Shown here: positions 8,799-40,211 of the stretch, piece after piece
How positions within the stretch are numbered: position 1 is the first letter of the stretch
How the letters are laid out: each line of letters opens with the position of its first letter
Assembly: GCA_947168085.1 (NCBI GenBank)
Contig: CAMVKM010000002.1
Coordinates: 1-52,502 of the forward strand
DNA length: 52,502 nt
Direction: 5' to 3'
DNA from: an uncultured Clostridia bacterium
GTDB taxonomy: Bacteria; Bacillota; Clostridia; Christensenellales; UBA1242
Program-made: the position numbers and the translations under genes
Notes under the pieces: model-generated
Told to the model about the DNA's origin: nothing
What the model saw: only the letters and a program-made list of their open reading frames with translations
The model's database searches: none

Positions 8799-8818
8799 AA
8801 AAATTTTTGTCCTTAAGT

Positions 8819-14703: not shown

Positions 14704-16245
14704 TTACATTGAAAGTGTGTCGTCCAAAACTTGAGACACAGCATCAACTGCATCATCTGCAACTGAATCAAGAACTTCTGAAACTTTTGGTTTTGATGCT
14801 TTTGTTTCTTGAATGTGATTTAAAATGTCTTCAAAAGTGCTGTCTGCGTCCATGTCTTGTGCCTTGTCATCAACAAGCATGTTTGTAACAAGCAAATCCA
14901 TGTCAAAGTCGTCAGCTGACAAACTTTCAAAGTACTCTTGTTGCAAAGCTTTAATTGCTTGGTTGTAATCATCAACTGTTGCAAAATACTCTCTAAAATT
15001 TGAGTCTGATTCATTATAAAGTTTTTCAAATTCGCTCAACTGCTCATCGGTTGCCAAAGATTTAAATTTGTCAATAAAAACATTAACTTGTTCCTGAGCA
15101 GTAAATGAATTTGCTAAAACATCATATTTGTGATCAAGAAGAAACTCATCTATTGAATATTTATGACCATTAAACACGAAATCTTCATAGGCAATGTCCC
15201 TATACTCTCTTCCAACAAACCCGCTATCACTAGGAACATAAAAAATGTTTTGCACATTAATCTCAATACCACGATCATGATAAGCTTTTGTTAAATTTGG
15301 AAAATTTTCAGTAAATTCATCAATAAATCTTGGTCCATCAGTCTCTTGAATACACTCACATTCTTGAAGTGTTTTCACACAAAAAGAAACAAGATTGTCA
15401 TCCAAATCTCGAACAAAGCCATTCACTCCACCACAAGTGCCTTTTTTGCCAGTAATATCGAATTCTGTGATGTTTGCACAATCTGTTGTAAGAAAATCTT
15501 CCAAATTTTGGTAAGATTCATCAATTTTTTCAATCAATGGTGCAAGTTTTTGGTTTGTTTTTGCCGCAAGTTCCTCAACTTGTTGTTGATAGGTTTTTGA
15601 AGAAAGCATTTCCACAACTTTTTCTTCAATTTCTGGCTTTCCTACATATTGTCCTGAAAGATTTGTTTCAATGATGTTTTCAATTTCATTTTCAGACATT
15701 TGTGGCTCATAAGGGTTGGTTACTGGAATCTCAAGTTTTTCGGGCAGAACAATTTCTGGAGCATCAGGAAGAGTCACATCTTTTTGCATTTGATTAAGTG
15801 CCACATAGGCACCAACTCCTGCAGCTGCAGCAACGCCAACACCCACAGCAGCCACTTTTGCTTTTGATTTGCCTTTTTTTAGGCTAGCTGGAGACACTGC
15901 TTCAAGTTTTTTGGATTCGTCCAAAAGTGTTTTTTCAAAATCAGCATAGGCGCTTGCTGGATTTGCCATTGAAGCAAACTCGGCTTCAACAGAATCTTTT
16001 CCAAATTTTTCTTCAATTTGTTTTGCATTTTTTTCACTTTCTTTTAGTTTTTGTGCTTTTGCATAAACTTTTGCACGGCTTTTGTCTCGTTGGTCCAAAA
16101 ACGCTTTGTAGGAAGCTTTGTCTTCAAAACCTTTTGATTCAAAATCTTCTAGTTTAGCTTCTCGTTCCTTTTCTACTTCTTTTAATGTTTTTTTAAATTT
16201 TCGTTGTTTTAACAATGGTTTTACAACCGGAATTGGATTTGGCAT
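14704..16245 (-). CDS. Bitopic membrane protein of unknown function: basic coiled N-terminal region, Gly/Ala-zipper TM helix, acidic ectodomain
   Basis: The track ORF starts at GTG 16251. ATG 16245 has AAGGAG 9 nt upstream. Residues 1-130 are K/E-rich. The TM helix is KVAAVGVGVAAAAGVGAYVAL (about 15796..15858). The roughly 360-aa C-terminal domain is strongly acidic with a 6-Cys cluster (TDCANI..GTCGG..SFCVKTLQECECIQ). I recognise no family. Confidence 0.7.
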   Translation of the reverse strand: MPNPIPVVKPLLKQRKFKKTLKEVEKEREAKLEDFESKGFEDKASYKAFLDQRDKSRAKVYAKAQKLKESEKNAKQIEEKFGKDSVEAEFASMANPASAYADFEKTLLDESKKLEAVSPASLKKGKSKAKVAAVGVGVAAAAGVGAYVALNQMQKDVTLPDAPEIVLPEKLEIPVTNPYEPQMSENEIENIIETNLSGQYVGKPEIEEKVVEMLSSKTYQQQVEELAAKTNQKLAPLIEKIDESYQNLEDFLTTDCANITEFDITGKKGTCGGVNGFVRDLDDNLVSFCVKTLQECECIQETDGPRFIDEFTENFPNLTKAYHDRGIEINVQNIFYVPSDSGFVGREYRDIAYEDFVFNGHKYSIDEFLLDHKYDVLANSFTAQEQVNVFIDKFKSLATDEQLSEFEKLYNESDSNFREYFATVDDYNQAIKALQQEYFESLSADDFDMDLLVTNMLVDDKAQDMDADSTFEDILNHIQETKASKPKVSEVLDSVADDAVDAVSQVLDDTLSM

Positions 16246-16309
16246 AAACACATTCTCCTTTTTTTATGTCTGGTAAATTGTATCACAAAACTTTAATTTT
16301 GTCAAGTTT

Positions 16310-19300
16310 TTAATTGTAATTAGAATATTTATAACCCAACAGTTTATATCGTTCAAAAAACTTGTGCCATTCTTCAATCAATTCATCTTTTTCTTCTTTA
16401 CTGATTTCTTGTTTTTGCGTTGTAGCGAAGTTTCCGTTTCTATCTTTCAAAAGTTTTCCAGAACCTTTACAAAGTGGGCAATCAATATGACCACTTCCAT
16501 CCACTTTGCCTTGCCACAAATCATCCCAAGCTCCGCCATGACCTCCACAACCAGAACAACCCACAGTGTCAATAACTGAGGATATTTTACCATTACCCCA
16601 ACATTCATCACAAACAACCTGGCCTTTTACAATAGCTGCCCCATTTTGACATATTTGCCCAATCCATTCACTGCACAGCATACAATCAATTTCCACATAA
16701 TCCTTAAGAATAGTTTTTGCCCAATTATTTTGAAGTATTTGAAAAACTGGACTAAAATTATGAGTATATAAAACACTTTTCATGGTTGGGTTTGCCGTTT
16801 TCATTGAACCATTACCCGTCTTGTCGTTTGTAACTAAACCTTTTGTTGCCAAATGTATTACTGAAGTGGATGCAGAACCATAATCTGTAATCGTTTCATA
16901 ATACCCTTGTTTTACTCCCTGATGTGAAGGGCCCGTTTCAACAAACACAGAATACTCATAATCGTAATCAACTGAAAGATTCCATGTTGATCGATATGGA
17001 TTACCATGCAAAATGTATTGTTGAGGAGTAACCGTCATGGACGCATCAAGTTCCATCCATCTTTGTGTTTTTGGACTGCTGCCTTGTTTTCCTGGAGTTA
17101 TTGAATATTTTTGAGTCAATGTACTGTTACATTCATAAGTTATGGTCCTAGATTCTTTCTCTTCACCATCTTCTCTTTTTAAATTATCAAAATCTATTTG
17201 CTCAGTTTGCTCTGGTTCTGTTGTTGAAATTGTTCCTGGATCTGGGCAAATTACCGTTCTTTGCAAACCATAAGTTTTAAAGAAAGCATTGTTGTTTTTG
17301 TCCCCAACTTCATCATCTGTCGCAAAAGGTGATGTTAAAGAAAATTTAAGCTTTTCAATTTTTGTTAACAAATTTTGTGTAACATCTACATTAGCTTTAA
17401 GATAAATGTAAGTTTTGCCAGTTTCCTTATCAAAAAACAAAAATCTTGTTACAACTGGATTGCTTGGATCATCTGAACTTATCTCTGTTGACGGACGAAT
17501 AGCCTGTCCAGAAACATCCTGGGCTTCAGCCCAATAAGTTGTGTTAGAATCGAGCACAATTTGTTGTTCACTGTCTGCATAGTTGTATGGATTTGTTATT
17601 GGAATTTTTACTCCTGCTATGTACTCATAATCAAAAGCATACAAATAAGGTGTTATGGTGTAAGTTTTTGTTAGTCCACCTTCTGAAACTCCTTTAATCT
17701 CCAATCCATTATCCTCAGGCTTTACTTCTACAGCCTCACTCCCATACACAAAGTAAGTGTCATCTTCATCATTTTCTGCATCAACACTATAATTGTCATC
17801 ACCTTGATTGTCTGGATTGTAAGCGTACACAACACTAGTGATTGGCTCTTCCTTATCATCTAAGAAGAACGCAATAACTCCACCAGCACCCAATGATTTT
17901 GGTTCATAATCGATGAAATCTTTTGGAACGATGTAATTTATCTTTTCACCTTCACCTTCGGTTTGAAGATCTGTTGTGTCTAGCGAAGGAAGAAACTCGT
18001 CAACACAATTAACATCAAATTGAGTTTCATAGAAATAACCAATTTCATAATCAGAATTTTTTGGAATTACACTTATCACAACAACATTACGACCAATTTG
18101 GAACTTTCCGTAGTTTACTCTTAGACCTTGTTCTGTGTTTGCCTCAGAAATAAGTGTGTAGTCAAACAAACCACCTGCCAATGCTTTGTAGGTGTTTGTT
18201 GTGGCTGTGTCTTTTTCACCCAAAGCCAAAAAGTTTGAAAGTCCAGTTATGGTGTCGTATTTTGATTTTGAATCTGAAATAACTCTAAGAATATCATCTT
18301 TTGACACATTGAGTGCATCAAGAGATGATGGATTGATTGTGTAGATTGCGCTTTGAGCCCTTTGAAGATTGATTGTGCTTTCACCAGAAATGATTTCTGA
18401 ATCTTGATAAGCAAAACCTTCAACTGGGTTGTCTTTGTAGGCAGTGTCATTAATTGTTTGTTGCCTTAGCGCAACTTTTACGCCCAAGTTGTTGTTGTAG
18501 GCAACTTTTGTTTCAACATTTGTGATTGCTTTTGTTACTGTGTTTCCAAAAGCGTTGTAGCGATAGTTTGTGTTTCCAACATCTGTTTTCGTTGCTGAAA
18601 TGCCTTCGTTGTTAAGACCTTGAATTATGATTTTGTCGTTTTCTTGAACAAGAGAAATGTCACCCTGTCCTGTTTCTCCCACTTTTGGATTGATGTAAAT
18701 TTTTCGGTATTCAACTGTTGCTGCAACACTCCAATCGCTGTCAAAAGCCCTTGGTTTGTTGTTTGAAGCGGTTTTTCCTGTAAGTTTGTAGAAAGCTGTG
18801 TAGACCCCACCTGGAGAATTTTGCAAAATGGCGTTGTAAAGATTTACAACATCATTACCGCTGAAAGAACCAGTTACTGTTGCATACCCAACTCTTGAAT
18901 TTGTGCTTTCTGGATATTCCGTTAAACTTCCTGAATAGATTTCAATTAAGGTTTGAGCCAAATTGTTGTCACCCAAACTATCAAATGTTTTTCCTGTGGT
19001 TGAATCAATGCTGAAACCTGCCAATTTTCTGTTGCCTGCCAAATCTGTTATGGTAATTGCATTTGCACTGTTTTCATAAACAGCAGCAAGTTTTGAAACA
19101 TCGATGTCCCTGTCTGCATTTAGCAATTTTTTGTTTTGATCAAAGCCATATGACAGCAAAACATTTTGATTGAAATTGTATTTTGCCGAAATGTCACGAA
19201 GGTGTGAAAGCTTTAACACAAAATCAAATTCGCTTGAAAGATCTTTGTGCCCAAACACCTTTTGGTCTTTGTTGTTTATTGTTATGGTGTAGTAAGGTTG

Positions 19301-22300
19301 AATTGCAAACTGCCATGTTGTGCATGTTGCCCAATCAAGATTGTTTTCAACATCTTTAAAGAGGAATTTTTTGCCTGAATGATCATTTGAACGCTCGATA
19401 ATATCAATGATGTTGTAGGTTTTTGTGTTTGATGAAACTGAACTATCATTCAACATGTAGATATGTGGATTTTCTTGTGTTTGATTTTTGTAATCAAAAA
19501 TTGTGAATTGATAATTTACATCATCAATGTTGCAATTTGCCAATTTGTCATATTTAAAACTCATGTTTATGCGGGCAGGTTTTAAAAGACCAGATGCTTT
19601 TCCTCCAACAATGGTTTCCTCTTCTGTCCACATGCCATCTTTTTCTGCTTCCATTTTTTCAACTGTGAATTCTTCGGTTGAAATGCGGTGATAGAATTTG
19701 AAGTTGCGCAACATTGATTGACTTGTTGTCCACAAACTTGATGCCTCTGCTGTTGGTTTTACTGTGATTTGAAAACTTATGTTAACACCATTTTTGTCAA
19801 TTAATCCTTTTTCCTTTAATGCGTTGTCGATTTGATTGTAGAAATTGTGGTTTGTTTCTTGATTTTGCGTGTTTTCTGAAATTGACGCATCTATACGATT
19901 TGTGTTTCCATAATTTTTTAATGCAATAGTTTCACCAAGTTGACCTGAACTTTGAATGGTGTTTTCAAGGAAAACTTTTACTTCAAAATCTAAGTGCAAA
20001 CCAAAACCATTTATGTTGGTGTAGCAAACACCATTGTTAGTATGAAATTCATCTCCTGCAGATTCAGCAGTGTAAAGATATAAATATGGGTCCATAACCA
20101 AAATTTGTTCCCTATATTCTCTAGACAATGTGTCATTTTTATAAGTTGTTAGGTTTGTAACATGATTGTCAACTCTCATCAAATCTTCAGTTGTTAAATA
20201 TGTGAACTTACCATTAATTTCTTTCTTTAATTCACCTGTGGTGTCTTCAATAGCCCCAGCAAAATCTAATTCAATTTTTCGAACATAGTTGTATTGTTCA
20301 CCATTTGAACCTTCTCTATCAATGTTAACACTTCTTGTTTCAACAAAAGACAATTGTTTTTTGATTAGAATTGTTTTAAATTTGTTTTGTTCTGGATTTG
20401 TTTGACTGCTGTGAGATTTTTTTGCTCCTGCAACATAACTTGCAACATAACCTTGATTTCCGTTTGAAACAAATGGCACATTATTTGTTGTAGTTACATT
20501 AAACAACATAACTCCATTGCCTTCTTGGTCGGTTGACACAAAAATGTCTTGAGCAATTGGTGTTTGATAGAATCCCCAAATATTGCGAATTACATTAAAC
20601 TTGTTACCGTTTCGATCAGAATAAAGTGCATTTAGTGTTGTACTTACTTCTCCACTTTGTTGTTGCTCGAGAACTATGTCTTGAACATAATCGGTTGTTG
20701 CCGGATTTCTTCCAACAACATCAACACAAAAAGCATCTCCCATTGTGCCCGTTTTGTGCCTGATGTACTGTGATGCTTCGTTTGTGCTGTAAACACCAAC
20801 AGTAAACGTGAAGTAGCCCGGAATAAATTTGTCGACAATCGCGTTGTAAATTGCGCTTTCTTGTTTTTGAGTGCTTAGATTTTCTGCTTTTGTTTCATAA
20901 TTAAGGAAATAAGTTTTATCTAAAACAATTGATGCTCGTTTCATAAAGTTGTGAATGTCCACTTGACAATCACTTAATGGAATGTCAAGACAAATGATTG
21001 AAGGTTCTGCCTCATCATCAAAGTAAAGTGAACTATTATTAAAATCTGCGCTATTAAGCAAGTTTAGACTAGTGTTTGTTGTGTCTCGAACAATGTAAAC
21101 CTTTAACATATCAGCAATGTCTGTTGCGCCATTAACAGGAGAGCTGATGTTTTCAACAGTTAGAGTGATTTTTATGTCTTTTACAATTTCACTTGATTGA
21201 TTTGGGTTTTCCTCAACATAATTAAACACATAAAAACCACTATTTGAATCGTCGATTGTGCCTTTGTCGCTTTCAACAACAACTTCGGAAATTTTTGGTG
21301 TTGCCATACGCACTCTATGAACAAAACTTGCTTCACCTTTTCCGTTTGATGACATTAAGTCTTGTCCGCCTTCAACAGGAATCAAAACCACTGTTCCAAC
21401 CACTTGGCCAACCACCATGCAAGTTCTGCTTACGTTGTAGGTTACTTCATTTAAGCCAGCGTTTGAACTAAACATCCAATTTAATGGAATTGCAACATTT
21501 GTAATTTCAACAGACCAAACTTGTGAGTCATTAGATGCTCCTGAAATGTAAGTGTTTGAAGTTACTCTTTTTAATATTTGTGGTTTTGTGTTAGAACCAT
21601 GTCCACGCAACAAAAGATTTTCGATTAACTCTGCACTGGAATCAGCGCTTGGATCTTTGTTGAAAACTTTTACTGCAACAACTTTGTATGGTGTTTGTTC
21701 TTCTGGTGTTTGCTCTATAACAATGCGGAAGAAAATGTCTTTGCTTACTGAATTTTGATTTGCAAGCATGGTTGAAACTTTTACAACAGCATAATATCTG
21801 TTTGTGCCAGCCGCATAATCAACATCTGTTGCATCTGTCAATTTTTGGAATGCTTCGGTTTTTAACGACAAGTAAAGGTTGTAGTAGTAATTATCCTTAA
21901 TTGTATCAAAATTGTCATCTTCAGAAACAAACATAAAGTGCTCTTCGTCACCAAAAGTATTTGCTTCTTTGCTTTTTGATGTGTAGGTTGAAATTCCAAC
22001 TATTGGTGCATCAAGACCATCAGGAATTAATGGCAAATCTTCTACATTTGTGTCACTGTCCAAAATGTAACCATCACCAAAATTGTTTGCAAAAACTTTA
22101 AAGCTTAATGTGTTGTAAATGAGTTCAAGCACACTTGGTGTGATGTGAAGTTTTCCGTTCCATGTTTCTGGGTCAAGGTTTTTAAGGTTAATTGTCATGC
22201 TGTAGGTGTTATTATTACGAACAACTGATGCCTCTGTTCCAACAACAGAAACCATTGCCGGTCCATGATTTTCCCCACTTTCTTCAGGCGAATACTTTGT

Positions 22301-25300
22301 TGTGTTCACAATTGAAAAATATGGTTCTTTTTCGCCTGGAATGTAAGTTTCTTCAATGTTTTTAAAGAAGGAACAATACCAATCAAATTTTAACTTGCTG
22401 TTTTTCAAATCTTTGAAGTCAAAACTGATATTTGTAACATTTTCAAATTTTAAGTAATGAAGCATTGCATTGGTTGTTGTTTTTGCTGTGCGCTCTGATG
22501 ACATATCAGCAACAGCATCACTTTTTGCACCATAAACACGGAAATAATGTTTGCCATAGTAATCTTTAAATTTTCCTGCAAGAATAGCTTTGTCTTCGTC
22601 CAAATCATCTGGAATTGGTCTAAACATAATTGAAACATCAATGTAAATGTAGCCATCAATTGGTTGAACACTTATTGGGTAAAAACTTTGATTTTCACCA
22701 TATTTTGAATTTGCTGTGGCAAATTCTTGTGAATGCCCTAAAATATAACTTGTTGGATACTGTCCATTAACATCTTCAACCTTAAATTTAATAAACACAT
22801 TGCGTTCATTTTCATTTTCTGCCCAAGCCTCTTTTAATGCATCTTTTGTTTCTTGAGAATCAGATTCATAAATCATTTTTGTGTTTTCAGATGTTGGGAA
22901 CAAACTGCTGTAATAGCCACTGCTGTCTGCGATGCTGTCCACAAGCATAATTTCAGTGATTTTCCATGGAGCCAAAATCAATTTTTTAGCGCTGTAAACA
23001 ATAGAATCCTCATACAAAACTGGATTTATTTGAGTGACTAATGAAATGGCAATGTAATACCAACCTGTTTTAAGTTCTTCACTGTCAAACCACTTGTCTT
23101 TTTCGACATTATCCCTGCTTTCAAGAAATTCTCGCATGTTAAATGAATATAAAAGTTTTTGTGTGTCTTGGTCAAGGTAAGACATGTTAAATGTCATATT
23201 GTAACCACCACTACTTTGATTACACCATGCAACTAACTCAGTTTGCCCAAAAACGCCGTAATTGCTTGGGTCAATATCTAGTTCTTTAAGTTGTTCAAAA
23301 GTTTTGTTTTCATCATAATCAGCAACATCAACACGAATAAGTTCAAATTTAAAAGTAACTTTTGAAGTACTGTTAATGCCATTGTTCCAAAGTCTTGTGT
23401 CTTGAGCATAATACTTATTAAATTTGTAGTTAAAGTCAACCTTGCCAGATGTGGTGTCCCAATTCATTCCTGGGTGATCATCCTCTGAAACAACACAATC
23501 AAGTTCTGTTTCCCAAACAAATTCATTGCTTGCAACATTAATTCCGCTTGTTGTTTGAATGTCTGTAATCAAAGGTGTGTCAATCCAGCCACTTTTGTTA
23601 ACAAAACGAGCGTCAGAAACTCTTAAAAACATTTCTATTGTGTTTGCATTGCTTGATGTGCTGTTGTCAGCCAAAAGAATGCTTCTTAAACTTATGCTTA
23701 AATTGTGTGTTGTTGCTGATTCCACATCCACAACTGAGATTGAACGTTCAATTCTTTGTTTGTTTACATAAATAATGAAATAATAACTGTCTGATTTGTT
23801 GCCTTTCATTCTTGTGTTGTCTGTGAATGACCAAGAAAGTTCTCCATAACTTGGACTTTGTCTGTTAGTGTTTAAAACAACTGAATTTATGTAAAGATTT
23901 CCAACCATGTCAAGAATGTCCCAGTATTCAAAATTACTTTCGTCCACATCAACAAGGTCTAATTGTGTTGCATAAACATCAAAGTAAACATAAGAATTGC
24001 CTAAACTTGATTCAGCAAACTCATCAAAAAATGGTTTTTCTTCAAAGTTTTCATTTGCTTGCATTACTATTGATTCAGGTTCTTCACCCCTTAACACATC
24101 AACAAAAGTTGTGTTAAAGTTGTAGGTGTCAACAATTTCATCTGTTGTGTAGATGTAATTAAGAGCATTGAACTCTAACACCATGTAACTAATGTTTGTT
24201 TTTGGATCAACTTTTGGCATAATGCTAAACAGTGAGTGAATGTGACCGGAAACATCAATTTTTGAAGTTTTTCTTGCAGCATCAACATCAACAAGTTCAT
24301 ACAAAATTTCAAAAATGTCATCATTGTCTGGATCAACATAACTAACTTTTACATAAGCATCAAATGTGTTTGTGCTGTCCTTTAATGCATCTACACTTTT
24401 AAATGAAATTTGATAGTGCAACATTGTGTCTAAAATTGGGTCTAGCAAAATTGTGTAGAGTTTTGTTCCTGTTACATAACCAGAAATGTCATCATCAACA
24501 CCATTTCCATCATAGTCAAACCATGTGTAACCCAACTTGTCGCGAGTTTCATAAATGTAACCATCATTTATGTCATCAGTTTTTTGCAAAACTGTTGAGT
24601 GAATTGTTTTGATGTAGTGTTTGTAAGTGATTGCATGAGTTTCGTTAAGGTCACTGTTTAAAACAAACTCACTTAAATCAGCAAGTGTCGAAAGCCATTT
24701 TGTTTTAAATGTGTAATTTCCATAATTCATGTCTGCAATGTGTTTTAACATCATTTGATAAACAGAAACATTTGCAACAACATTTCCATTGCCATCGTCT
24801 TGAGTTTCTGCTCTTTCTTTCCAAACAACATCACCATTTTCATCAATGCAGTAAATTTCATAAATTACGCCAATTTCACTAATGCCATGTTCAATCAAAA
24901 GATCAGTTAATGTGTCAAAACCATCAGTTGTTCTAATTTCCGTTGCAGGTCTATCTTCATCAATTGTTGTCATGTGACGATTGTAAATTGTTATGGTGCT
25001 TTGTGCTCCACCAAAATCATAATCAAACAAATCACTGTTTGCATAGTAAACTCCATCACCTTTTGCAACAATTTTTAAGGTGTAAACACCTGGAGTGAGT
25101 TCATTTGTTGTGTTTGATTTGTTTCCTGTTAAGGTAAGTTTTTTAACTAAAGAGCCTTGTTTGTAGAAGTATACTTCATATCCCATAATTTCATCAGGTT
25201 CTTCAGCTTCCGAAAGTCCTCTTGTTACTGCTTTTGCGTTAAAATATCCACTTAACAAATGTTCGTTTAAAATTGCAATATAGCTTTGGTCATAAATTGG

Positions 25301-28300
25301 TTCACCAAAAGATTCACTTGTTTCGTCAGAATTTACTGCAAGAATATAGCTGTCCACAACAACATCAATGTATCTTAAAGCATTACTAAGTTCAATTTTT
25401 CTGTTGTTAACAAACTCTGTTCCAACAGAGTCTCCAGTTCTCATAAATTCATTTGCAATAGCTGGAAGAACTGTTACATAAACTTTGAAATCACCTGAAT
25501 CAACATTTTCAAAATAATCAAACACATTAAGTTGAACATGCGCAACAGAACTATCTTGTTCATCAATCACATAAAAACTTGTTGTTCCATCAAAGTAAAT
25601 AATACTGTAACGAGCATCGCTAATTACGCTACTGTAAGCAAAGTAAGCAGCATAAACTGGTCTTTCATCACCGCCAACCGTTTCTGTTGCCAAAACTTGA
25701 GCTTCTTCTCTAATCAAAACATTGTTTTCAACAATATCTTTTTTAACTTCAACTTTTAATATTGATCTTGTTAAATCATCATCTGCCATATCAAAAGTCA
25801 AGGTTTTTGTTCTTGAACCATCATTTGAGTTGTAAGTGTAGTTGTAATTAAGATTAGAAACATGACCCGCTTTATCAAAAATTCTAAGTTCAGCCCTCGT
25901 TTCATTGTCCGCCATAGAACCAGTCATTGTGTAAGAAGAATTTAAGTTTTCTTGCTTGTCTGTAGCAACACTTGCCCAAAGATAATACAAGCCTTTTGAT
26001 GGAGGATTTGCACTGTTTTGAAGAGATTCAATCCAGCTTGAAATGTCACAAACATAATAAATTTGCTCATTTTCAATCAAAATGTCAACAAGCAAAGGAT
26101 CAACAAATTCATTTAATTTGTCGCTTCTTAAAACACTTGTTTGATTTGCATCTAAAAGTGTTGGAACTCTAACTTCAATTTTATCTTCTGCGTTACTTGC
26201 TTCTCCTGTTGCTCTGTTTACATCAAGATTTGTTACACTTGATTGCGCAAGATAGAAATTGTAAAGCGTTGCATAGTAGTTTTCACTTGAATCTTGAGTT
26301 GCTTTCCATTTAAGTATGTAGGTTACTTCATCTGGGCAATCAATTTCAAGCCAAACATTAGAATTTATGACAATAGGAAGAAAAACTTCTGCTTGCAAAG
26401 TTTTATCGTTGTAAATTTGGTGAGTTGTTCCCAATTCATCAACAACAGCAAAGTTTGAAACAGACATTGTTGCCATTCCATTTCTGTATCTTCTGTCTAT
26501 TTCACTTAAGAACAAACTTGTTTTTCCATCAGTTGTTGCAAAAACGCTGTTATTTGCTGTTGAATATGGAGTTGATTCAATTCCTTCCTGAATCACTGAC
26601 ACAACATAATGTTCGTGTTTTTTGTAGTTGTTTGGCAAAAGTTGTGTTGAAATTTTAGAGAATGGATCATCCCATGAAAGATAGTAACCATCACTAACAT
26701 CATCAAAACTAATGTCTAAATCAAAGTTTTGAAAGTCTTGTGAACCAACATGGAAAATTTGATAAACAATTGTTGAGTAACCTATTGTTGCCACATTTGA
26801 TTTTGAAAAAACAATAACGCCATAAATTTTTGTGCTGTCATTAACATCAAAATCGTCAATCACAAAATAATTGTTCTCTGTTAAAATCCAAAAATCTGAA
26901 AGACCAAGATAGTCGTCATAACTTTCATTTGCAAAAAGTAGATTTGTGTCAATATAAAGTTTGTCAGACACATTTGTTAATGTTTCACGACCAGTGTTGT
27001 CTTGGCAACGAAGTTCATAAGTGTTTGTTGTTAAATCCCAAACATAGTAAGCATAACCATAAGTTGCATTTGACACTTCACCCCAACTTACATTTGCCCC
27101 ATGCCCCAAAAGTGGAGTGATTTGTAAACCTGCTGGAGATGGTGTGCGTGTTGATGTTACTATTGTTTTGTAATCAAACCATGAGTGTGTTAAGAAAACA
27201 AACTCTTCTGGCATGTCATTACAATCAAGCAAATCTTCATAATCTGCTTTTTGTTTGGCTTCAAAATCCATTACCCTTACGCCAAACTCAAAGTTGTAGT
27301 CAAATGTTGTCCAGTAAGCAAAAGCCTTTCCTTCAAGTTTGAAGCCTGCAATGTGCTCTATTGGAATTTCATAAGTGAAGAGCGTTGCAAATTCGCCTTG
27401 TTGTTTTTGAGCAAGATAGGTGCTTCCGTCTGCAACAAAAAGGCTTTTGTTTGTTGTTTGTTGTTCATGATTTCCAACAATGTCAACTGTTTTAATTTCT
27501 AAATCAAAACCTTTAAAATCATCTGTTAAAAATTCATTTAGCACAGAAATTTTAACCGAAACAGGATCTGTTGAATTAATTTGAGCACTTTCAACAGAAA
27601 AACCATAAACTGAATCTAAAGTTTTTGAGTAAAAGATGTAAATTGGATTAGAAAAACTGCTTTCATTAGCATATTGGTTTCCACCAAATTTAATAATCAG
27701 TTTGTAAATTCCTTCTTTGTTTAAGAACAAAGACACTGGATCAATAAGATACTTGTAATATGTTTTGCCCTCATAAGAAAAGTCGGTCAGCAAAACAGTT
27801 TGTGGCTCTTGTGATTCTACACTCATAAAGCCTGAGCCATAAACTTGTGTTATTTCAAAGTTTATCCATGCAGCTGATCTTCCGCTGTCATAATAACTGT
27901 TTGGAGTTCTTTGAATGTAAACAGCAAGTGGTCTTGTTGATTGGTCATTTGATGTTGCATAATCTTTTAAAACACTAGAGCCATCATAAAAACCAATTTC
28001 TGGTGCAGTAATTACTGCTGATTTGGTTCTAAATGTAACTCTGTATGGGTTTGATTCGTTGAAGTGTTTTTCAACTTTTCCTTTTGCAATAACAACAAGT
28101 TGATATTGTGTGTTTGCCAAGAACCCTGTTGCACCATAAAACTTTAAGCCAATTCTCTTGTCTCCAACAACCAAAGTTGCCAAAACATTGTCTCCATTCA
28201 TAGCTGTTAGTGTTCCATTAATGTCAGCAAAATCAAACTCTGCATTGTTGTAGTTTAAACTATATGAGTAGTAAGCATCTTCGCCTTCAGGTTCAACCAA

Positions 28301-31300
28301 ACTAATTTGTAGTCCAAGAGTTAAAACATCACTTTGGGCAACACCACTGGTTTGAATTTTAATGCTGTAGCCACCAGGAAGAATTTCTTGTTCTTCACCA
28401 AAACTTGTGCCTTTTATGTTTTTAAAACTTGTTTCAAAAGTTGGAATTAAAGTTGCAGATGTTTGCTCACCAGTAAATCCTTCTGCAACATAAATTTCTG
28501 GGGTGTCAAATTTTTTGCTTACTTCAACAGCAACAGACAAACTTGGTTCACTTTTTATAACACTACCATCAATGTTTTTCCAATTTTCGTTTGTTGCAAC
28601 AACAAAAATTTTGTATAAACCATTTGCAACAAGATTGTTGTTTAAGTAGTCTGCAAGTTTTGCATTAAGCAAATACTCTGTGTGTTCAAAACCAATCAAA
28701 GATTCCTCTGTTGCGCCACTACTCATGCTAAATTCACCCAAAATTTGAGCATCATCTTGTGTTTGTGTGTCATCATTGTAGTAGTAAACACTGTAAAGTG
28801 TCACAAAAGATTCTGGCTGAATTTTTTTAATTTGAAGTTGTGTTCCATTTAGTGTTACAACAGGTGCATCTAAAATTGGAAGATATTCAAAAAGTTCACT
28901 TGTTGTGGTTTCACTTTGAAGATATGCTCCACCGTCAACATTGTAGCCACACGCAAAAACTTTTGCTCTAATTTTAAATCTTTCAGAAAAAATGTTTTCA
29001 TAAATGTCTTTTGCATTAACAGTAATTCTTGCGCTTGCTTGTCCAACTGTTAGTTCACCAAGAAAAACTCCCGTTTCATCATTTTCGTCCTCATACTTAA
29101 ACAATTGAACGCAGTAAGCATCTCCTGTTCTGTTTTGCTTTCTAACAATATCCCAAGAAACGAAAATTTGTTGTGTTTCTAAATTTTGAGTTATTTTTAG
29201 ATTTTGTGGTGCTTCAAGTTTTACATTAACATTAATTTCTTGTGTAAGTTTGTTGCTTGTTCTGTTTTGAACTGAATCAAAAGATGAATATGGCCACATT
29301 GAAAATTCAATTGTTCCGGCTTTTTCAAAGAACACTTGTTCAGAGTAAAGCATGTAGTCGCCATCTTCGGTTTCATTGGATTTTGAAAGTGTCATTTCTT
29401 GAACATTTTCATAAACCCCATTTACAATATAGCGATAATTGCATTTAAAACTTGTTACATAAGCACTGGCTGTTTTTAAAAATCTCCAGTAAAATGTTGA
29501 AGTTGTTGAATCATAACTAAACCCATAAACTTGTGGCATTCTTGAATTGTCATAAAAATCTTTTGAAAATTCTTGTGAATGAATGTAGTTTTTGTCTACT
29601 GTTGTGTTTGGTAAAGCATTGTTTTCATCATAAACAGGATTGCATATGATTCTTGTTTTGGTGTATTCAGCAAGCCATGTTGGGTTTAGTTTTTGAACAT
29701 AAACCGCTGTTGTTTGTCCGTTTGCATAAAAATCATAACTTGCACTGTTTGAGTGAACTGTGCTTTCACTGTCGGTGTAAACAAATGTGTAGTTAAACTT
29801 GTTTGCATAGCGATCAGAGTAAAACATTAAATAGAAATTAAGTTCGTCATCAACATCTGTGTATTTTTTAATTGCTCTTGCTTCCACTAAAAATCTTGTT
29901 TCATCATAACCCGCACCAATGTAGTAGTGGTAAGCAACATTTGTAAGCTGAGGACTTGCTGATGTGGTAAAACCAGTGTAGCCAAGCGCTGTGATTTGAA
30001 CTGTGTTTGTTGCTTTTGGAATAACATAGTCAGAAATGTTTAATCTGTATTGTGTGTCATCACCCGTTCCACACGCTGCCAATTTAGATTGATTGTCAAT
30101 AGAAATAATGTAGCCGTTTACATTGATGTCAAAATGCTGATTGTATTCATCATAAATTGTTTCCATGTTGCTATCAAGACGATCCCAAACAACATACAAA
30201 TTGTTGCTGTTCTCTGCTTGAGATGCAATAAAAACATCAGGCACAGGAAGATAACGAACAAAGGAATAACTAACACTTTGTGAAAGTTCGCTGTCACCAA
30301 AGTTTGAATCATCTAAAGCAATTGCTTTAACAGCAAAGTTGTAACTTCCTTGTTCAAATTGCCCTTGCATTTCATTAAAGTAGTAGTCAAAACCAGATAA
30401 ACTAAGCACTCCATTTGTTATGGTTGCATTAAAGTTGGCGTTAACTTCCCACTCATTCAAATTGTTTTTAGTTTTAACAACACAATTTGTTTCATCTGTT
30501 GTGTCAACAAAAACATTGCCATCAACACCATCAACAAAAAGTTGATAACCTTTTGCATGACTAACAACACTAAACTCAAGTTTGTGCTGTGAAATGTCTT
30601 GATCTGTGTCTACAAACTGCAAATTTTGTGGTGTAGCAACAAGCACAGAGTAGTAAAATTCACATTTTTCTGATTCATCTGAATCTGTAAAGATTAAGTA
30701 ACCACCCAAAGTTTTTACGCTTGCAAAATATGTTCCTGGATTTTCACTGTTTTCTGCCAAAAATTCAGAAAGATTTAAGTTGTTGTTTGAAAAAACACTT
30801 TCGTTGTGGTTTCTTTGTTTCCTAAATGTTTTTACAACATTATTTTCGTTTTGATAGTAAATTGTTATCTCGTAACCGTCAATATCGGTTAATGCTGGAT
30901 ATCTTGTTGAACCCTCTAAAGTGTCTGTTGCGTAACTGTTTGCAAAAGGTGTCCAAGAAAGCACTTGTGTTGCAGAGTTGTAGGTTACTTCAATTGGTGC
31001 TTCGTGCTTTAGAGTTTCAAATTTAAAGAACTTTGAACTAATGTCACTTTCTGTGTAGTAGTCGCTTTGTTTTTTTGCAACAACAGACACAAGATAGTAA
31101 CCATCGGCACTTAAATCAACTGGGAATGAAACTGTTCCACCATCAATTTCAGCATACCACTGATTTGATGAGCCTGGAATTGTGAAATAGTTTCCAAGTT
31201 TGTCTTGGATAAAGACTTTGTAGCGGGTTTGTTCTTCAGCCCTCCAAGAAACATCAATTCTGTCTCCTTGTTCTCCACTTCTAAAAACTTTAAAGTCAAC

Positions 31301-32413
31301 AGCATTTGTCTGTTTTTTGATTGTGTAAGAAACAACATTACTTGTGCTTGCAAAAATGTTGTCTGAAGGGTTTTTTGCTTCAACATAAACACTGTAGGTT
31401 CCAACATCATCATTATCAGTAAAGAACACTGTTACTGTGCTACTTGATGATGAGATTTCATAACTTCCAGCATCATCTTCAGACACAAACACTTTTTGCA
31501 TCAAACCATTTCTAAACACCTGAAAAGTTTTTGCAAATTTCACATTGTCCCAAGAAAGAACAATTCTTCTGCCTTGTTGTGACAGTGTAAGGTTTGGAGA
31601 TGCGATTTGTTTGTAAGTGTTAAAATAGCCATAAGCAATGCTGCTTGGAAGCAAGTAAGAATTTGTGCTAAATGTTTGAACGGAAACAGCAAAATTTAAT
31701 GAATCAAGGCTGTTTAACAAATTTGCTTGTTCTTGTGTTAGAGTGTAAGAATTTGATTGCGTTGTAATTGTTAAAACAACATTATTGTTGTTGTCACGGT
31801 CTAGCACTTTTAGTTCATGGTAAAGTGTTCCAAGTTCTGCGCTTTCATCAACAGTCCAGGAAAAAGACAAACTGTCATTGTTAACGCTTACCACTGGAGT
31901 TTTTATGTCATAATAAACATCAACAGGACATTGCTCTGGATCACTTAAAACAGAATTGTAGGAAGGCACTTTAAAGTACAGTGCTTGCACTGAAACGTAG
32001 TAAATTCCAGAACCGGAAAGATAGTTTGTTATGTCTCTTGTTGTTGAGCGAAAAGAAAATTTTGGCACAACATTTTCATAAGCATTTTCTTTGGCTCTTT
32101 GAACATCTTCCATTCCTTTGAATATGTAAACAGCATAGCCATCGGCATGCTCTACTTCATCAAAAGACAAAATGTAACGATTGCCACTATCCGTCCGTTG
32201 CGTGGTAACAACAACCCCTGTTGGACTGTTTAACTCACTCGCAACAACCGGTTTGCTTGTGTTAAAAATAATAGCAAACATTGCAAATCCACCAATCAGC
32301 AATAGTAAAGCAATCAAGATTATGATTAGTCTTGACCTTCTTTCCTTGCTTTTGTTTGTAATGTAAACAACTTGGGAACCTTGCCCGTTGCTATTAAAAT
32401 CATGTTTAGCCAT
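16310..32413 (-). CDS. Giant (5,367 aa) N-terminally membrane-anchored surface protein, giant B
   Basis: The ORF is uninterrupted for 16,104 nt. An RBS (AAGGAAAAAG) precedes the ATG at 32413. The N-terminus has KSKERRSR followed by LIIILIALLLLIGGFAMFAIIF, indicating an N-in signal-anchor. About 10 Fn3-like modules occupy residues 55-1174. The next roughly 4,000 aa are collinear with giant A. The C-terminus has a CxxCxGxG zinc-finger module and a charged helical tail. Confidence 0.9.
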   Translation of the reverse strand: MAKHDFNSNGQGSQVVYITNKSKERRSRLIIILIALLLLIGGFAMFAIIFNTSKPVVASELNSPTGVVVTTQRTDSGNRYILSFDEVEHADGYAVYIFKGMEDVQRAKENAYENVVPKFSFRSTTRDITNYLSGSGIYYVSVQALYFKVPSYNSVLSDPEQCPVDVYYDIKTPVVSVNNDSLSFSWTVDESAELGTLYHELKVLDRDNNNNVVLTITTQSNSYTLTQEQANLLNSLDSLNFAVSVQTFSTNSYLLPSSIAYGYFNTYKQIASPNLTLSQQGRRIVLSWDNVKFAKTFQVFRNGLMQKVFVSEDDAGSYEISSSSSTVTVFFTDNDDVGTYSVYVEAKNPSDNIFASTSNVVSYTIKKQTNAVDFKVFRSGEQGDRIDVSWRAEEQTRYKVFIQDKLGNYFTIPGSSNQWYAEIDGGTVSFPVDLSADGYYLVSVVAKKQSDYYTESDISSKFFKFETLKHEAPIEVTYNSATQVLSWTPFANSYATDTLEGSTRYPALTDIDGYEITIYYQNENNVVKTFRKQRNHNESVFSNNNLNLSEFLAENSENPGTYFASVKTLGGYLIFTDSDESEKCEFYYSVLVATPQNLQFVDTDQDISQHKLEFSVVSHAKGYQLFVDGVDGNVFVDTTDETNCVVKTKNNLNEWEVNANFNATITNGVLSLSGFDYYFNEMQGQFEQGSYNFAVKAIALDDSNFGDSELSQSVSYSFVRYLPVPDVFIASQAENSNNLYVVWDRLDSNMETIYDEYNQHFDINVNGYIISIDNQSKLAACGTGDDTQYRLNISDYVIPKATNTVQITALGYTGFTTSASPQLTNVAYHYYIGAGYDETRFLVEARAIKKYTDVDDELNFYLMFYSDRYANKFNYTFVYTDSESTVHSNSASYDFYANGQTTAVYVQKLNPTWLAEYTKTRIICNPVYDENNALPNTTVDKNYIHSQEFSKDFYDNSRMPQVYGFSYDSTTSTFYWRFLKTASAYVTSFKCNYRYIVNGVYENVQEMTLSKSNETEDGDYMLYSEQVFFEKAGTIEFSMWPYSSFDSVQNRTSNKLTQEINVNVKLEAPQNLKITQNLETQQIFVSWDIVRKQNRTGDAYCVQLFKYEDENDETGVFLGELTVGQASARITVNAKDIYENIFSERFKIRAKVFACGYNVDGGAYLQSETTTSELFEYLPILDAPVVTLNGTQLQIKKIQPESFVTLYSVYYYNDDTQTQDDAQILGEFSMSSGATEESLIGFEHTEYLLNAKLADYLNNNLVANGLYKIFVVATNENWKNIDGSVIKSEPSLSVAVEVSKKFDTPEIYVAEGFTGEQTSATLIPTFETSFKNIKGTSFGEEQEILPGGYSIKIQTSGVAQSDVLTLGLQISLVEPEGEDAYYSYSLNYNNAEFDFADINGTLTAMNGDNVLATLVVGDKRIGLKFYGATGFLANTQYQLVVIAKGKVEKHFNESNPYRVTFRTKSAVITAPEIGFYDGSSVLKDYATSNDQSTRPLAVYIQRTPNSYYDSGRSAAWINFEITQVYGSGFMSVESQEPQTVLLTDFSYEGKTYYKYLIDPVSLFLNKEGIYKLIIKFGGNQYANESSFSNPIYIFYSKTLDSVYGFSVESAQINSTDPVSVKISVLNEFLTDDFKGFDLEIKTVDIVGNHEQQTTNKSLFVADGSTYLAQKQQGEFATLFTYEIPIEHIAGFKLEGKAFAYWTTFDYNFEFGVRVMDFEAKQKADYEDLLDCNDMPEEFVFLTHSWFDYKTIVTSTRTPSPAGLQITPLLGHGANVSWGEVSNATYGYAYYVWDLTTNTYELRCQDNTGRETLTNVSDKLYIDTNLLFANESYDDYLGLSDFWILTENNYFVIDDFDVNDSTKIYGVIVFSKSNVATIGYSTIVYQIFHVGSQDFQNFDLDISFDDVSDGYYLSWDDPFSKISTQLLPNNYKKHEHYVVSVIQEGIESTPYSTANNSVFATTDGKTSLFLSEIDRRYRNGMATMSVSNFAVVDELGTTHQIYNDKTLQAEVFLPIVINSNVWLEIDCPDEVTYILKWKATQDSSENYYATLYNFYLAQSSVTNLDVNRATGEASNAEDKIEVRVPTLLDANQTSVLRSDKLNEFVDPLLVDILIENEQIYYVCDISSWIESLQNSANPPSKGLYYLWASVATDKQENLNSSYTMTGSMADNETRAELRIFDKAGHVSNLNYNYTYNSNDGSRTKTLTFDMADDDLTRSILKVEVKKDIVENNVLIREEAQVLATETVGGDERPVYAAYFAYSSVISDARYSIIYFDGTTSFYVIDEQDSSVAHVQLNVFDYFENVDSGDFKVYVTVLPAIANEFMRTGDSVGTEFVNNRKIELSNALRYIDVVVDSYILAVNSDETSESFGEPIYDQSYIAILNEHLLSGYFNAKAVTRGLSEAEEPDEIMGYEVYFYKQGSLVKKLTLTGNKSNTTNELTPGVYTLKIVAKGDGVYYANSDLFDYDFGGAQSTITIYNRHMTTIDEDRPATEIRTTDGFDTLTDLLIEHGISEIGVIYEIYCIDENGDVVWKERAETQDDGNGNVVANVSVYQMMLKHIADMNYGNYTFKTKWLSTLADLSEFVLNSDLNETHAITYKHYIKTIHSTVLQKTDDINDGYIYETRDKLGYTWFDYDGNGVDDDISGYVTGTKLYTILLDPILDTMLHYQISFKSVDALKDSTNTFDAYVKVSYVDPDNDDIFEILYELVDVDAARKTSKIDVSGHIHSLFSIMPKVDPKTNISYMVLEFNALNYIYTTDEIVDTYNFNTTFVDVLRGEEPESIVMQANENFEEKPFFDEFAESSLGNSYVYFDVYATQLDLVDVDESNFEYWDILDMVGNLYINSVVLNTNRQSPSYGELSWSFTDNTRMKGNKSDSYYFIIYVNKQRIERSISVVDVESATTHNLSISLRSILLADNSTSSNANTIEMFLRVSDARFVNKSGWIDTPLITDIQTTSGINVASNEFVWETELDCVVSEDDHPGMNWDTTSGKVDFNYKFNKYYAQDTRLWNNGINSTSKVTFKFELIRVDVADYDENKTFEQLKELDIDPSNYGVFGQTELVAWCNQSSGGYNMTFNMSYLDQDTQKLLYSFNMREFLESRDNVEKDKWFDSEELKTGWYYIAISLVTQINPVLYEDSIVYSAKKLILAPWKITEIMLVDSIADSSGYYSSLFPTSENTKMIYESDSQETKDALKEAWAENENERNVFIKFKVEDVNGQYPTSYILGHSQEFATANSKYGENQSFYPISVQPIDGYIYIDVSIMFRPIPDDLDEDKAILAGKFKDYYGKHYFRVYGAKSDAVADMSSERTAKTTTNAMLHYLKFENVTNISFDFKDLKNSKLKFDWYCSFFKNIEETYIPGEKEPYFSIVNTTKYSPEESGENHGPAMVSVVGTEASVVRNNNTYSMTINLKNLDPETWNGKLHITPSVLELIYNTLSFKVFANNFGDGYILDSDTNVEDLPLIPDGLDAPIVGISTYTSKSKEANTFGDEEHFMFVSEDDNFDTIKDNYYYNLYLSLKTEAFQKLTDATDVDYAAGTNRYYAVVKVSTMLANQNSVSKDIFFRIVIEQTPEEQTPYKVVAVKVFNKDPSADSSAELIENLLLRGHGSNTKPQILKRVTSNTYISGASNDSQVWSVEITNVAIPLNWMFSSNAGLNEVTYNVSRTCMVVGQVVGTVVLIPVEGGQDLMSSNGKGEASFVHRVRMATPKISEVVVESDKGTIDDSNSGFYVFNYVEENPNQSSEIVKDIKITLTVENISSPVNGATDIADMLKVYIVRDTTNTSLNLLNSADFNNSSLYFDDEAEPSIICLDIPLSDCQVDIHNFMKRASIVLDKTYFLNYETKAENLSTQKQESAIYNAIVDKFIPGYFTFTVGVYSTNEASQYIRHKTGTMGDAFCVDVVGRNPATTDYVQDIVLEQQQSGEVSTTLNALYSDRNGNKFNVIRNIWGFYQTPIAQDIFVSTDQEGNGVMLFNVTTTNNVPFVSNGNQGYVASYVAGAKKSHSSQTNPEQNKFKTILIKKQLSFVETRSVNIDREGSNGEQYNYVRKIELDFAGAIEDTTGELKKEINGKFTYLTTEDLMRVDNHVTNLTTYKNDTLSREYREQILVMDPYLYLYTAESAGDEFHTNNGVCYTNINGFGLHLDFEVKVFLENTIQSSGQLGETIALKNYGNTNRIDASISENTQNQETNHNFYNQIDNALKEKGLIDKNGVNISFQITVKPTAEASSLWTTSQSMLRNFKFYHRISTEEFTVEKMEAEKDGMWTEEETIVGGKASGLLKPARINMSFKYDKLANCNIDDVNYQFTIFDYKNQTQENPHIYMLNDSSVSSNTKTYNIIDIIERSNDHSGKKFLFKDVENNLDWATCTTWQFAIQPYYTITINNKDQKVFGHKDLSSEFDFVLKLSHLRDISAKYNFNQNVLLSYGFDQNKKLLNADRDIDVSKLAAVYENSANAITITDLAGNRKLAGFSIDSTTGKTFDSLGDNNLAQTLIEIYSGSLTEYPESTNSRVGYATVTGSFSGNDVVNLYNAILQNSPGGVYTAFYKLTGKTASNNKPRAFDSDWSVAATVEYRKIYINPKVGETGQGDISLVQENDKIIIQGLNNEGISATKTDVGNTNYRYNAFGNTVTKAITNVETKVAYNNNLGVKVALRQQTINDTAYKDNPVEGFAYQDSEIISGESTINLQRAQSAIYTINPSSLDALNVSKDDILRVISDSKSKYDTITGLSNFLALGEKDTATTNTYKALAGGLFDYTLISEANTEQGLRVNYGKFQIGRNVVVISVIPKNSDYEIGYFYETQFDVNCVDEFLPSLDTTDLQTEGEGEKINYIVPKDFIDYEPKSLGAGGVIAFFLDDKEEPITSVVYAYNPDNQGDDNYSVDAENDEDDTYFVYGSEAVEVKPEDNGLEIKGVSEGGLTKTYTITPYLYAFDYEYIAGVKIPITNPYNYADSEQQIVLDSNTTYWAEAQDVSGQAIRPSTEISSDDPSNPVVTRFLFFDKETGKTYIYLKANVDVTQNLLTKIEKLKFSLTSPFATDDEVGDKNNNAFFKTYGLQRTVICPDPGTISTTEPEQTEQIDFDNLKREDGEEKESRTITYECNSTLTQKYSITPGKQGSSPKTQRWMELDASMTVTPQQYILHGNPYRSTWNLSVDYDYEYSVFVETGPSHQGVKQGYYETITDYGSASTSVIHLATKGLVTNDKTGNGSMKTANPTMKSVLYTHNFSPVFQILQNNWAKTILKDYVEIDCMLCSEWIGQICQNGAAIVKGQVVCDECWGNGKISSVIDTVGCSGCGGHGGAWDDLWQGKVDGSGHIDCPLCKGSGKLLKDRNGNFATTQKQEISKEEKDELIEEWHKFFERYKLLGYKYSNYN
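16457..16684 (-). other. DnaJ-type cysteine-rich zinc-finger module at the C-terminus of giant B
   Basis: CMLCSEWIG (degenerate), CDECWGNG, CSGCGGHG and CPLCKGSG: three canonical CxxCxGxG repeats plus one degenerate. A 48-aa K/E-rich tail follows. Confidence 0.75.
28892..32250 (-). other. Array of about 10 Fn3-like modules in the N-terminal quarter of giant B (approximate bounds)
   Basis: Recurrent units of about 90-110 aa open with motifs such as SPNL, TPVV, APQNL, ATPQNL or DAPVV. Each contains an (L/F)SW(D/T) ... GY.(V/I).(V/I/F) signature. Confidence 0.5.
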
Positions 32414-40178: not shown

Positions 40179-40211
40179 ACAAAAAAAGTAAGACATTTTT
40201 GCCTTACTTTT
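40179..40211 (-). terminator. Candidate rho-independent terminator for giant A
   Basis: Minus strand reads AAGUAAGGC / loop AAAAAU / GUCUUACUU (one G-U pair) followed by a U7 run. It lies about 140 nt downstream of the stop at 40351. Confidence 0.5.

Follow-up and report, generated by a model that had tools for sequence, protein, structure and literature searches.

The 52,502-nucleotide stretch of DNA analysed here, from contig CAMVKM010000002.1 of an uncultured Clostridia bacterium and called the window below, carries a giant gene, B, that encodes a protein of 5,367 amino acids (aa). B probably specifies an exported, membrane-tethered and hypervariable surface fibre or adhesin, composed of beta-sandwich domains, that is diversifying and ends in a DnaJ-like tail. 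A broader proposal is advanced here as a tentative possibility. B and a neighbouring giant, A, may belong to an undescribed family in an uncultured clade of Clostridia, consisting of non-repetitive fibres of about 5,000 aa with two paralogues per genome at a fixed site beside aspS, evolving below detection within a genus and capped by an extracellular zinc finger of the DnaJ type. Such fibres might co-diversify with a membrane protein, D, as a strain-specific recognition device (phage receptor or decoy, host attachment or kin recognition) persisting through allele exchange together with balancing or diversifying selection.

B occupies positions 16310..32413 of the window on the minus strand, as do all its segments described below, and runs from ATG to TAA with an AAGGA ribosome-binding site 11 nt upstream. 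The remaining five frames of these 16.1 kb contain 261-597 stops each, and their longest open stretch is 106 codons. From base composition, 5,367 stop-free codons would arise by chance with a probability of about 1e-186; TGA is a stop codon in the window, which has a G+C content of about 34%. B is a genuine coding gene under selection, and the original prediction of an uninterrupted reading frame filled with selected sequence rather than filler is upheld on both counts. The contig is of metagenome type and every family member is known from a single contig, which would speak for an assembly artefact or a decaying pseudogene posing as one reading frame. Against this stand the chance value just given, the presence of colinear relatives in four independent assemblies (full-length proteins of 5,305, 5,248 and 4,320 aa among them), positional orthologues on at least five contigs, and a ratio of nonsynonymous to synonymous divergence (dN/dS) of about 0.44, i.e., below 1. 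An artefact is thus effectively excluded as an explanation, its probability being negligible. An Rfam search of the window gave no match.

Giant A (40351..52500, minus strand) is a paralogue of B that continues past the window end; it has at least 4,049 aa, with four CxxCxGxG motifs in its tail. B residues 1174-2439 align with A residues 1-1308 at 34% identity, and B 2438-4945 with A 1400-3702 at 32%; the tails match too. An exhaustive profile scan, in which B1701-2700 and the matching part of A were compared with 1.84 billion protein representatives, returned as family matches B itself, P0002 (5,248 aa), P0003 (5,305 aa) and P0004 (4,320 aa), the last three each a singleton cluster on one contig. 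When one genome per species was considered for 185,579 species, relatives were found in one metagenome-assembled genome, CAVEAP01, labelled [Ruminococcus] torques. Scans of JGI metagenome and viral contigs revealed no family member; their lone match (L004) was rejected as an unrelated secreted enzyme with one Fn3-like module in common with the family. A word-indexed protein search with B1701-3300 and B2480-2780 returned no match, B itself included. This null reflects a limit of the index and not an absence of relatives, because the exhaustive HMMER search found them in the same collection.

The family falls into a B-type lineage (B, P0003 and H1) and an A-type lineage (A, P0002 and H2). P0003 and H1 are 38-41% identical to B over essentially its full length, and P0002 and H2 are 52-53% identical to A. 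P0002, a full-length A-type protein, matches B in its N-terminus and module array. A distant member of the family, P0004, has about 26% identity and no cysteine tail. All members are colinear end to end, so that order and length are retained and sequence is not. Gene conversion between A and B was considered and dropped; just short DNA matches of 66-81% were seen. The called end of P0004 (KKCQHQNHIIQMQRIGQ, followed by the stop) overlaps a second frame that continues into a serine-rich stretch (contig L003, 16036-16470), which suggests a frameshift or assembly error near an A-rich run. A frameshift was rejected as the cause of the missing tail, the shifted frame likewise being devoid of CxxC motifs.

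More distant loci carry giants at the same site. Contig L007 (ENA ERZ28653755 scaffold_1462, 1-7457 and 20983-21749; 30% G+C, AspRS 79% identical) encodes a giant of 5,971 aa beside aspS that went undetected by the B1701-2700 profile, and L009 encodes one of at least 2,580 aa adjoining aspS. These giants, from relatives with AspRS identities of 79-82%, show patchy colinear identity of 24-28% to the family, have no cysteine tail and are accompanied by a D-like membrane protein. A relative with 72% AspRS identity has no giant at the aspS site. A second large gene of 2,856 aa lies at the opposite end of the L007 locus. The pair L009 and L010 was dropped as a second within-species comparison, both being one sequence.

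The evolutionary behaviour of the locus is best seen in two contigs of one species: L005 (CAVEAP010000003.1, which carries H1) and L006 (a Logan contig from SRR19415688, which carries P0003). The AspRS protein closest to that of the window (P0008, 94%) is identical on both, and the window shares with L005 and L006 the gene order giant, D, AspRS, ABC-F, CysRS, SLOG, MGDG synthase and Coat_F. Between L005 and L006, six flanking proteins have 98-100% identity, with DNA identity of 96.9% over 11.7 kb, whereas the giant is 54% identical in protein and 66-76% in DNA, and D is 60% identical in protein, with 75.7% DNA identity in the segment spanning it. The switch in DNA identity is sharp and is located in the intergenic region between D and AspRS. 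Divergence at nonsynonymous (dN) and synonymous (dS) sites follows the same division: dN is 0.001-0.008 and dS 0.07-0.12 in the flanks, compared with 0.44 and about 1.0 in the giant and 0.27 and 0.64 in D. The giant and D thus exceed the flanks about ten-fold in dS and about a hundred-fold in dN. Since both rates are elevated, the alleles of the giant and D are much older than the flanking genes, which points to allele exchange or long-maintained alleles, and they tolerate or favour amino-acid change.

Divergence is also graded along the giant. The identity of H1 to P0003 is 65-80% at the equivalent of B residues 400-1700 and falls to about 30% beyond 4800; by this measure, constraint is strongest at the predicted membrane-proximal end and weakest at the distal end. 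Between the window and L005 or L006, AspRS and ABC-F are 94% identical, B 38-41% and D 37-39%. The original prediction had described B as conserved module by module with A. Its order and length are indeed colinear with those of A, but the sequence is among the fastest-diverging of the locus, as is evident from the identity of B to its positional orthologues where AspRS reaches 94%, and from the 54% between strains with identical AspRS.

Gene D (14704..16251, minus strand), which lies downstream of B, encodes a 515-aa single-pass membrane protein with a charged N-terminus, a hydrophobic segment rich in glycine, alanine and valine, and an acidic C-terminal part. It is kept downstream of the B orthologues at about 37% identity over its full length and co-varies with them. 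The 58-nt gap between B and D contains a near-consensus sigma-70-like promoter (TTGACA-17-TACAAT with a TG extension; 16277..16305, minus strand).

Proteins of the size of B are commonly repetitive, and B is not. Self-BLASTP of the protein detected no internal repeats at E<0.01, and gene B contains no direct, inverted or tandem DNA repeats past chance 20-40-mers. In a profile-profile self-comparison (hhalign, 110-residue windows against a seven-sequence family alignment), off-diagonal matches were weak, the best having a probability of 46% and an E-value of 2e-4; nearly all joined stretches of about 100 aa within residues 60-1200, and the few others fell at 1744-1823 and 2407-2529. The absence of near-identical repeats, expected beforehand, is therefore borne out by all three comparisons.

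A succession of modules can still be discerned in the N-terminal part. The original prediction placed about ten Fn3-like modules in residues 55-1174 (28892..32251). A hidden Markov model (HMM) was started from a single module and refined by iteration across the whole family, reversed sequences serving as decoys. It mutually recognised consecutive modules of about 100 aa in residues 74-730 (30224..32194), which share the pattern W..V..A..Y.VY ... G.Y.V.V.A. Four of them score 73-85 bits (74-191, 278-377, 380-487 and 604-730), and two are weaker: 500-603 with 19.7 bits, and 178-280 with 4.6 bits, near the decoy maximum of 3.7. The rest of B is at or near decoy level, and past residue 730 the module signals are weak, with hhalign adding weaker links at about 1053-1127. 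About six modules are thus demonstrable by sequence, four strongly, which makes the earlier figure of about ten roughly correct in outline, but none reaches the Pfam fn3 model. Neither P0004 nor any of five overlapping segments of B matched that model (PF00041) at E<=0.1. When 16 modules were combined into a profile, it produced sub-threshold matches to the Fn3 structures 7jgu, 1bpv and 3mpc (E 0.07-0.3). Nothing significant emerged from Pfam, NCBIfam, PHROGs or PDB sequence searches of B, and an N-terminal profile found no match in the PDB.

The region beyond these modules, residues 1174-4945 (17579..28894), forms a core colinear with giant A at 32-34% identity and with P0002, P0003 and P0004, and has no Pfam, NCBIfam or PDB sequence match. 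Structure prediction was more informative. An AlphaFold2 model of B1701-2860, derived from a five-sequence alignment, has a mean predicted local distance difference test score (pLDDT) of 53. Within it, model residues 55-530, corresponding to B residues ~1755-2230 (25724..27151), have block means mostly of 65-87 and contain 48% strand and 6% helix, arranged as about five predicted tandem beta-sandwich domains. A Foldseek comparison of the model with the PDB yielded 124 matches at E<=0.001, the best with E 6e-13. The top matches are multi-domain FnIII/Ig ectodomains, including the leptin receptor, OSMR, gp130, fibronectin III7-10, titin, contactins and LAR. Tandem FnIII proteins have E-values from 6e-13 to 1e-5, and the top 50 are mostly FnIII or Ig proteins, among them an S-layer protein. 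An independent indication comes from P0005, a protein unrelated to the family and the sole non-family match of the exhaustive search, which aligns to B ~1764-1807 (E 1.8e-4). It has two Pfam fn3 domains, and the stretch matching B is not its best Pfam-listed fn3 stretch. A cadherin-6 match of the core-alignment profile against the PDB (E 0.003) was judged too weak for use.

B ~1755-2230 is accordingly modelled as a tandem chain of Fn3/Ig-like sandwiches, and because the structural matches and the independent P0005 alignment agree, part of the core can be assigned to this fold. The Fn3-like fold thus accounts for part of the core at the least, and probably for most of it. Since about five domains fill 475 residues, extrapolation to the whole of B would give about 50 beta-sandwich domains. 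The earlier division of the protein into an Fn3 array and a core of some 4,000 unassignable residues hence looks like an artefact of sequence visibility, and this part of the original prediction is not supported in that form.

The N-terminus suggests how such a chain could reach the cell surface. Residues 1-28 (32330..32413) form a short, predicted cytoplasmic N-terminus ending in KSKERRSR, a positive-inside signal, and residues 29-50 (32264..32329) form the sole strong hydrophobic segment, a signal-anchor or the core of a long signal peptide. Five lysine or arginine residues (K/R) occur in the 15 residues preceding this segment and one in the 15 that follow. The N-termini of P0002, P0003 and P0004 have the same hydrophobic segment with a K/R-rich N-flank, and because they share this pattern, the N-in orientation of B, with its bulk outside, is well supported. 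The topology proposed earlier is therefore retained, the asymmetry being present in all four full-length members. A second, marginal hydropathy peak, at residues 3665-3683, is specific to B and scores 1.64 against a cut-off of 1.6. A possible cleavage site for signal peptidase I lies six to eight residues past the hydrophobic core, in the conserved motif V-x-A|S/N (KPVVA|SE in B). The signal-anchor that had also been proposed is not supported in that form, as the adjoining candidate site would allow a cleaved signal peptide instead. B, A, P0002, P0003 and P0004 contain no LPxTG motif, and a hydrophobic segment is missing from the C-terminus of B. B also has no GGxGxD motifs and no Big or RTX Pfam match, and the wall-binding domains SLH and CWB2 were not matched in Pfam or NCBIfam searches.

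The absence of SLH, CWB2 or any other wall-binding domain in these searches bears on another view of the locus, in which B is a structural envelope layer and A, B and a third large protein, C, enclose the cell or spore in a protective coat, sheath or S-layer-like lattice. In that case, phage or immune pressure on the coat, and not ligand binding, would lie behind the variability. Three very large surface proteins encoded together over about 36 kb of the 52-kb window would suit this, as would the nearby Coat_F spore-coat gene and the Ig-domain S-layer protein of Haloferax, which ranks 35 among the Foldseek matches. Hypervariable surface-layer cassettes also exist in Clostridia, the slpA cassette of C. 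difficile being an example. A linear chain of about 50 domains anchored at one end is nevertheless better suited to a fibre than to a two-dimensional lattice, and the gradient of divergence from N- to C-terminus suggests a single distal, exposed end. We therefore consider both the envelope layer and this source of variability unlikely, each with perhaps a minor share of the probability, and favour the membrane-tethered fibre.

The distal end of this fibre is distinctive. Residues ~4950-5225 (16739..17566) are the least conserved stretch, partly acidic or of low complexity, and residues 5001-5200 have no BLASTP alignment with giant A. They are followed by a conserved tail at 5230-5321 (16451..16726), in which NWAKTIL precedes four cysteine pairs resembling the cysteine-rich domain of DnaJ. 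The motifs lie within 5244-5319: CMLC (5244), CDECWGNG (5268), CSGCGGHG (5286) and CPLCKGSG (5312). The layout is common to B, A, H1, P0002 and P0003, and the number of complete CxxCxGxG motifs varies from four (A and P0002) through three plus one CxxC (B and H1) to two plus two (P0003). A profile of the five tails matches the cysteine-rich domain of E. coli DnaJ (1exk) with E 0.004 over 69 of 79 residues, and also matches BSD2, DNAJA3 and Anti-TRAP. Repeated CxxCxGxG motifs, set within about 90 residues in the A and B tails, are the feature in common with the DnaJ domain (PF00684, 1exk) and its relatives BSD2 and Anti-TRAP. The tails of A and B differ from DnaJ in having no J domain, in being predicted as extracellular and in standing at the end of a fibre of about 5,000 aa. 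The zinc-finger tail described earlier is thus present in the form of four zinc-finger-like cysteine pairs; as a predicted extracellular element, it would be an unusual use of that motif. An AlphaFold2 model of B4400-5367 was unusable (mean pLDDT 31.8). Residues 5322-5367 (16313..16450) constitute a C-terminal extension found only in B, with one helix predicted at low confidence. In the tails of the B-type orthologues P0003 and H1, an insertion of hydrophobic character, rich in glycine and alanine, displaces the third cysteine pair; it is absent from B and from the A-type proteins. In P0003 (residues ~5228-5275), the insertion comprises about 45 aa, AAITGGGALSAATIATLGSGGTLIVPAAIFTAVSTAAGAGAGA, and might form a membrane hairpin.

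A variable C-terminal end and a downstream gene that is hypervariable in step with the giant are also what would be expected of a stalk for polymorphic-toxin or contact-dependent competition, with a variable C-terminal effector and with D as immunity protein or cognate receptor. The arrangement of CdiA/CdiI, WapA/WapI and Rhs systems resembles that of the giant and D. In B, however, divergence is graded over the whole 16 kb, no sharp demarcation motif is present, and the extreme tail motif is conserved, not swapped. Two VENN strings in B (2228 and 4355) are absent from A, P0002 and P0003, and Pfam and NCBIfam searches revealed no toxin, RHS/YD, LXG or filamentous-haemagglutinin domain. D is, moreover, a 515-aa membrane protein with its own promoter and not a small cytoplasmic immunity protein. 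These features make a competition stalk improbable.

Taken as a surface fibre, the protein would operate as follows. B would be exported through Sec by means of its N-terminal hydrophobic segment and, if that segment is an uncleaved signal-anchor, would stay attached to the membrane. Its shaft of about 5,300 residues would consist mostly of some 50 Fn3/Ig-like domains that have diverged from one another beyond sequence recognition, the fold being modelled for ~1755-2230, signalled by modules at 74-730 and extended by extrapolation to the rest. With 3.5-4 nm for each domain, such a shaft could measure well over 100 nm. The tip would comprise the variable region and then the small domain of four cysteine pairs resembling the DnaJ zinc finger, which in the A and B lineages is probably a folded cap or docking element. 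The co-varying membrane protein D would be a likely partner of B. The locus would be under diversifying selection with allele exchange, the giant and D appearing as a hypervariable block, sharply delimited, within genomes that are nearly identical elsewhere, with divergence rising toward the presumably exposed C-terminal end. This pattern fits the expectation for a strain-specific adhesin, an antigen or a target of phage or host recognition.

Several known proteins share parts of this architecture. SiiE, LapA, MpIBP, Ebh and Bap-type proteins are giant adhesins composed of arrays of Ig-like or Fn3-like beta-sandwiches. They extend over thousands of residues as an extracellular rod of sandwiches of about 100 aa, with a distinct distal end and an anchor at one end, and they typically contain tandem recognisable, often near-identical Pfam repeats together with signals for type I secretion and RTX or for LPXTG and sortase. 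B resembles them in size, predicted sandwich rod, distinct distal end and predicted one-end anchor. It differs in having no detectable repeats, Pfam domain, LPXTG or RTX motif, and in its N-terminal hydrophobic anchor and four-cysteine-pair tail.

The order of an N-terminal hydrophobic segment, modules of about 100 aa and a distinct C-terminal part, with giant genes as neighbours, is also that of Gli349 of Mycoplasma mobile, a 3,183-aa protein in which 18 repeats of about 100 aa lie between a transmembrane segment and a C-terminal foot of 463 aa (PMC6376172). This parallel, which extends to several giant surface genes in tandem in both organisms, would allow B to be a motility leg analogous to Gli349. 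The host of B is, in contrast, related to walled, spore-forming Clostridia and is not a mollicute, as indicated by Coat_F in the window and by genes for a Mur ligase and SpoVG in one relative. The tail of B is zinc-finger-like and not a foot containing leucine-rich repeats, no motor genes are present in the window, and hypervariability within a species, as seen in B, has not been described for Gli349. No sequence link was found, no direct comparison with the Gli349 sequence having been made. A leg function is accordingly very improbable, and the surface fibre remains our preferred interpretation.

Strain-level variability of a giant surface gene has a parallel in genomic islands of Alteromonas macleodii, which carry single giant surface-protein genes encoding 5,751 and 6,388 aa; bacterial Ig-like domains are present in one of the two. 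These differ strongly between close strains, and the authors link them to phage recognition or evasion (PMC3458243). A. macleodii belongs to another phylum with another envelope, its islands vary by presence or absence and its bacterial Ig-like domains are recognisable, whereas B is a positional orthologue with a sharp recombination boundary. The giants of Omnitrophota and other uncultured bacteria, which span 10,000-85,000 aa and contain numerous transmembrane helices as well as SecA-like domains (bioRxiv 10.1101/2023.11.21.568195), resemble B in being metagenome-derived and largely unannotated, with domains seen through structure prediction of sub-fragments, and attachment was proposed for them in that work. 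B differs in having a single strong hydrophobic segment and no SecA-like domains.

A number of observations weigh against the membrane-tethered sandwich fibre. The N-terminal segment could turn out to be a signal peptide that is cleaved off, and the proposed anchor would then be lost. Pfam models for Fn3 or Ig are not significant on B. About 9% of the protein is modelled confidently, the remainder of the first model and all of the tail model being unreliable, so that non-sandwich functional domains could be hidden in the core. One candidate is B ~2475-2600 (in the 24900-25000 region of the window), the most conserved stretch of the family, in which the motifs R-H-M, H-G-I-x-E, a single cysteine and S-D-L-x-E are invariant in B, A, P0002, P0003 and P0004. 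AlphaFold2 confidence is low there, and a functional site could lie within it. The Pfam model DnaJ_CXXCXGXG (PF00684) stays below its gathering threshold in both giants (13.7 bits in B and 17.7 in A, compared with 32.7), and no published precedent was found for an extracellular DnaJ-type zinc finger on a bacterial fibre. The within-species contrast comes from one genome pair, and we infer the role as adhesin or antigen from architecture and evolutionary pattern alone.

The usual explanation for giant surface proteins is that a single repeat has expanded. B, by comparison, is a 16-kb gene that has remained intact despite the drift of its domains beyond recognition. Such drift hides these proteins from domain databases, and their relatives are nearly undetectable even in 15 billion sequences. 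The sharply bounded contrast between flanks (98-100%), giant (54%) and D (60%) marks a candidate for an exposed, strongly selected surface structure, and strain-specific phage susceptibility, immune recognition or attachment could have its basis in this locus.

A, B and C, all on one strand, are surrounded by other features of the locus. Gene C (32442..39701, minus strand) encodes a putative lipoprotein of 2,419 aa (…APAFVAC|SEDD) with a weak Big_2 match. It ends 28 nt before B, and the two genes are probably co-transcribed; promoter-like sites occur upstream of C. Its C-terminal half is abundant in GGIVG-type motifs and is 28% identical to the product of the gene directly upstream of P0004 (L003 1-2970). 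A terminator-like hairpin 3' of giant A (40182..40213, minus strand) separates A from the C-B unit.

The cellular genes of the window encode CysRS, ABC-F, AspRS, a U32 peptidase, an MGDG-synthase-like glycosyltransferase and Coat_F, the last of which hints at a spore-forming host. At the window start (1-3199, minus strand), a large surface-protein gene runs off this edge; it encodes at least 1,066 aa with an N-terminal hydrophobic anchor, MKTNKSFKGFALKNWKTILICVILALTLAGGGLLVV, and has one GLUG-motif Pfam match. The adjacent 333-aa open reading frame (ORF; 3200-4201, minus strand) has hydrophobic segments at both ends and repeat units of about 70 aa (...GDYTATVSLKDKTNYIW...), with no Pfam match. 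It shares 46% identity with the positional orthologues of L005 and L006, which are 95% identical to each other. Small genes at 6787-7608 encode a 67-aa ORF, a 92-aa Coat_F protein and a 103-aa Zn_ribbon_2 protein, the first two being a conserved pair in L005 and L006. Two called starts are probably too far upstream. That of the AspRS ORF (12585-14429, minus strand) would lie near 14333, since AspRS relatives have 581-583 aa. The MGDG-synthase-like ORF (7551-8864, minus strand) begins with a TTG that overlaps the SLOG gene, and its called orthologues have 414 aa.

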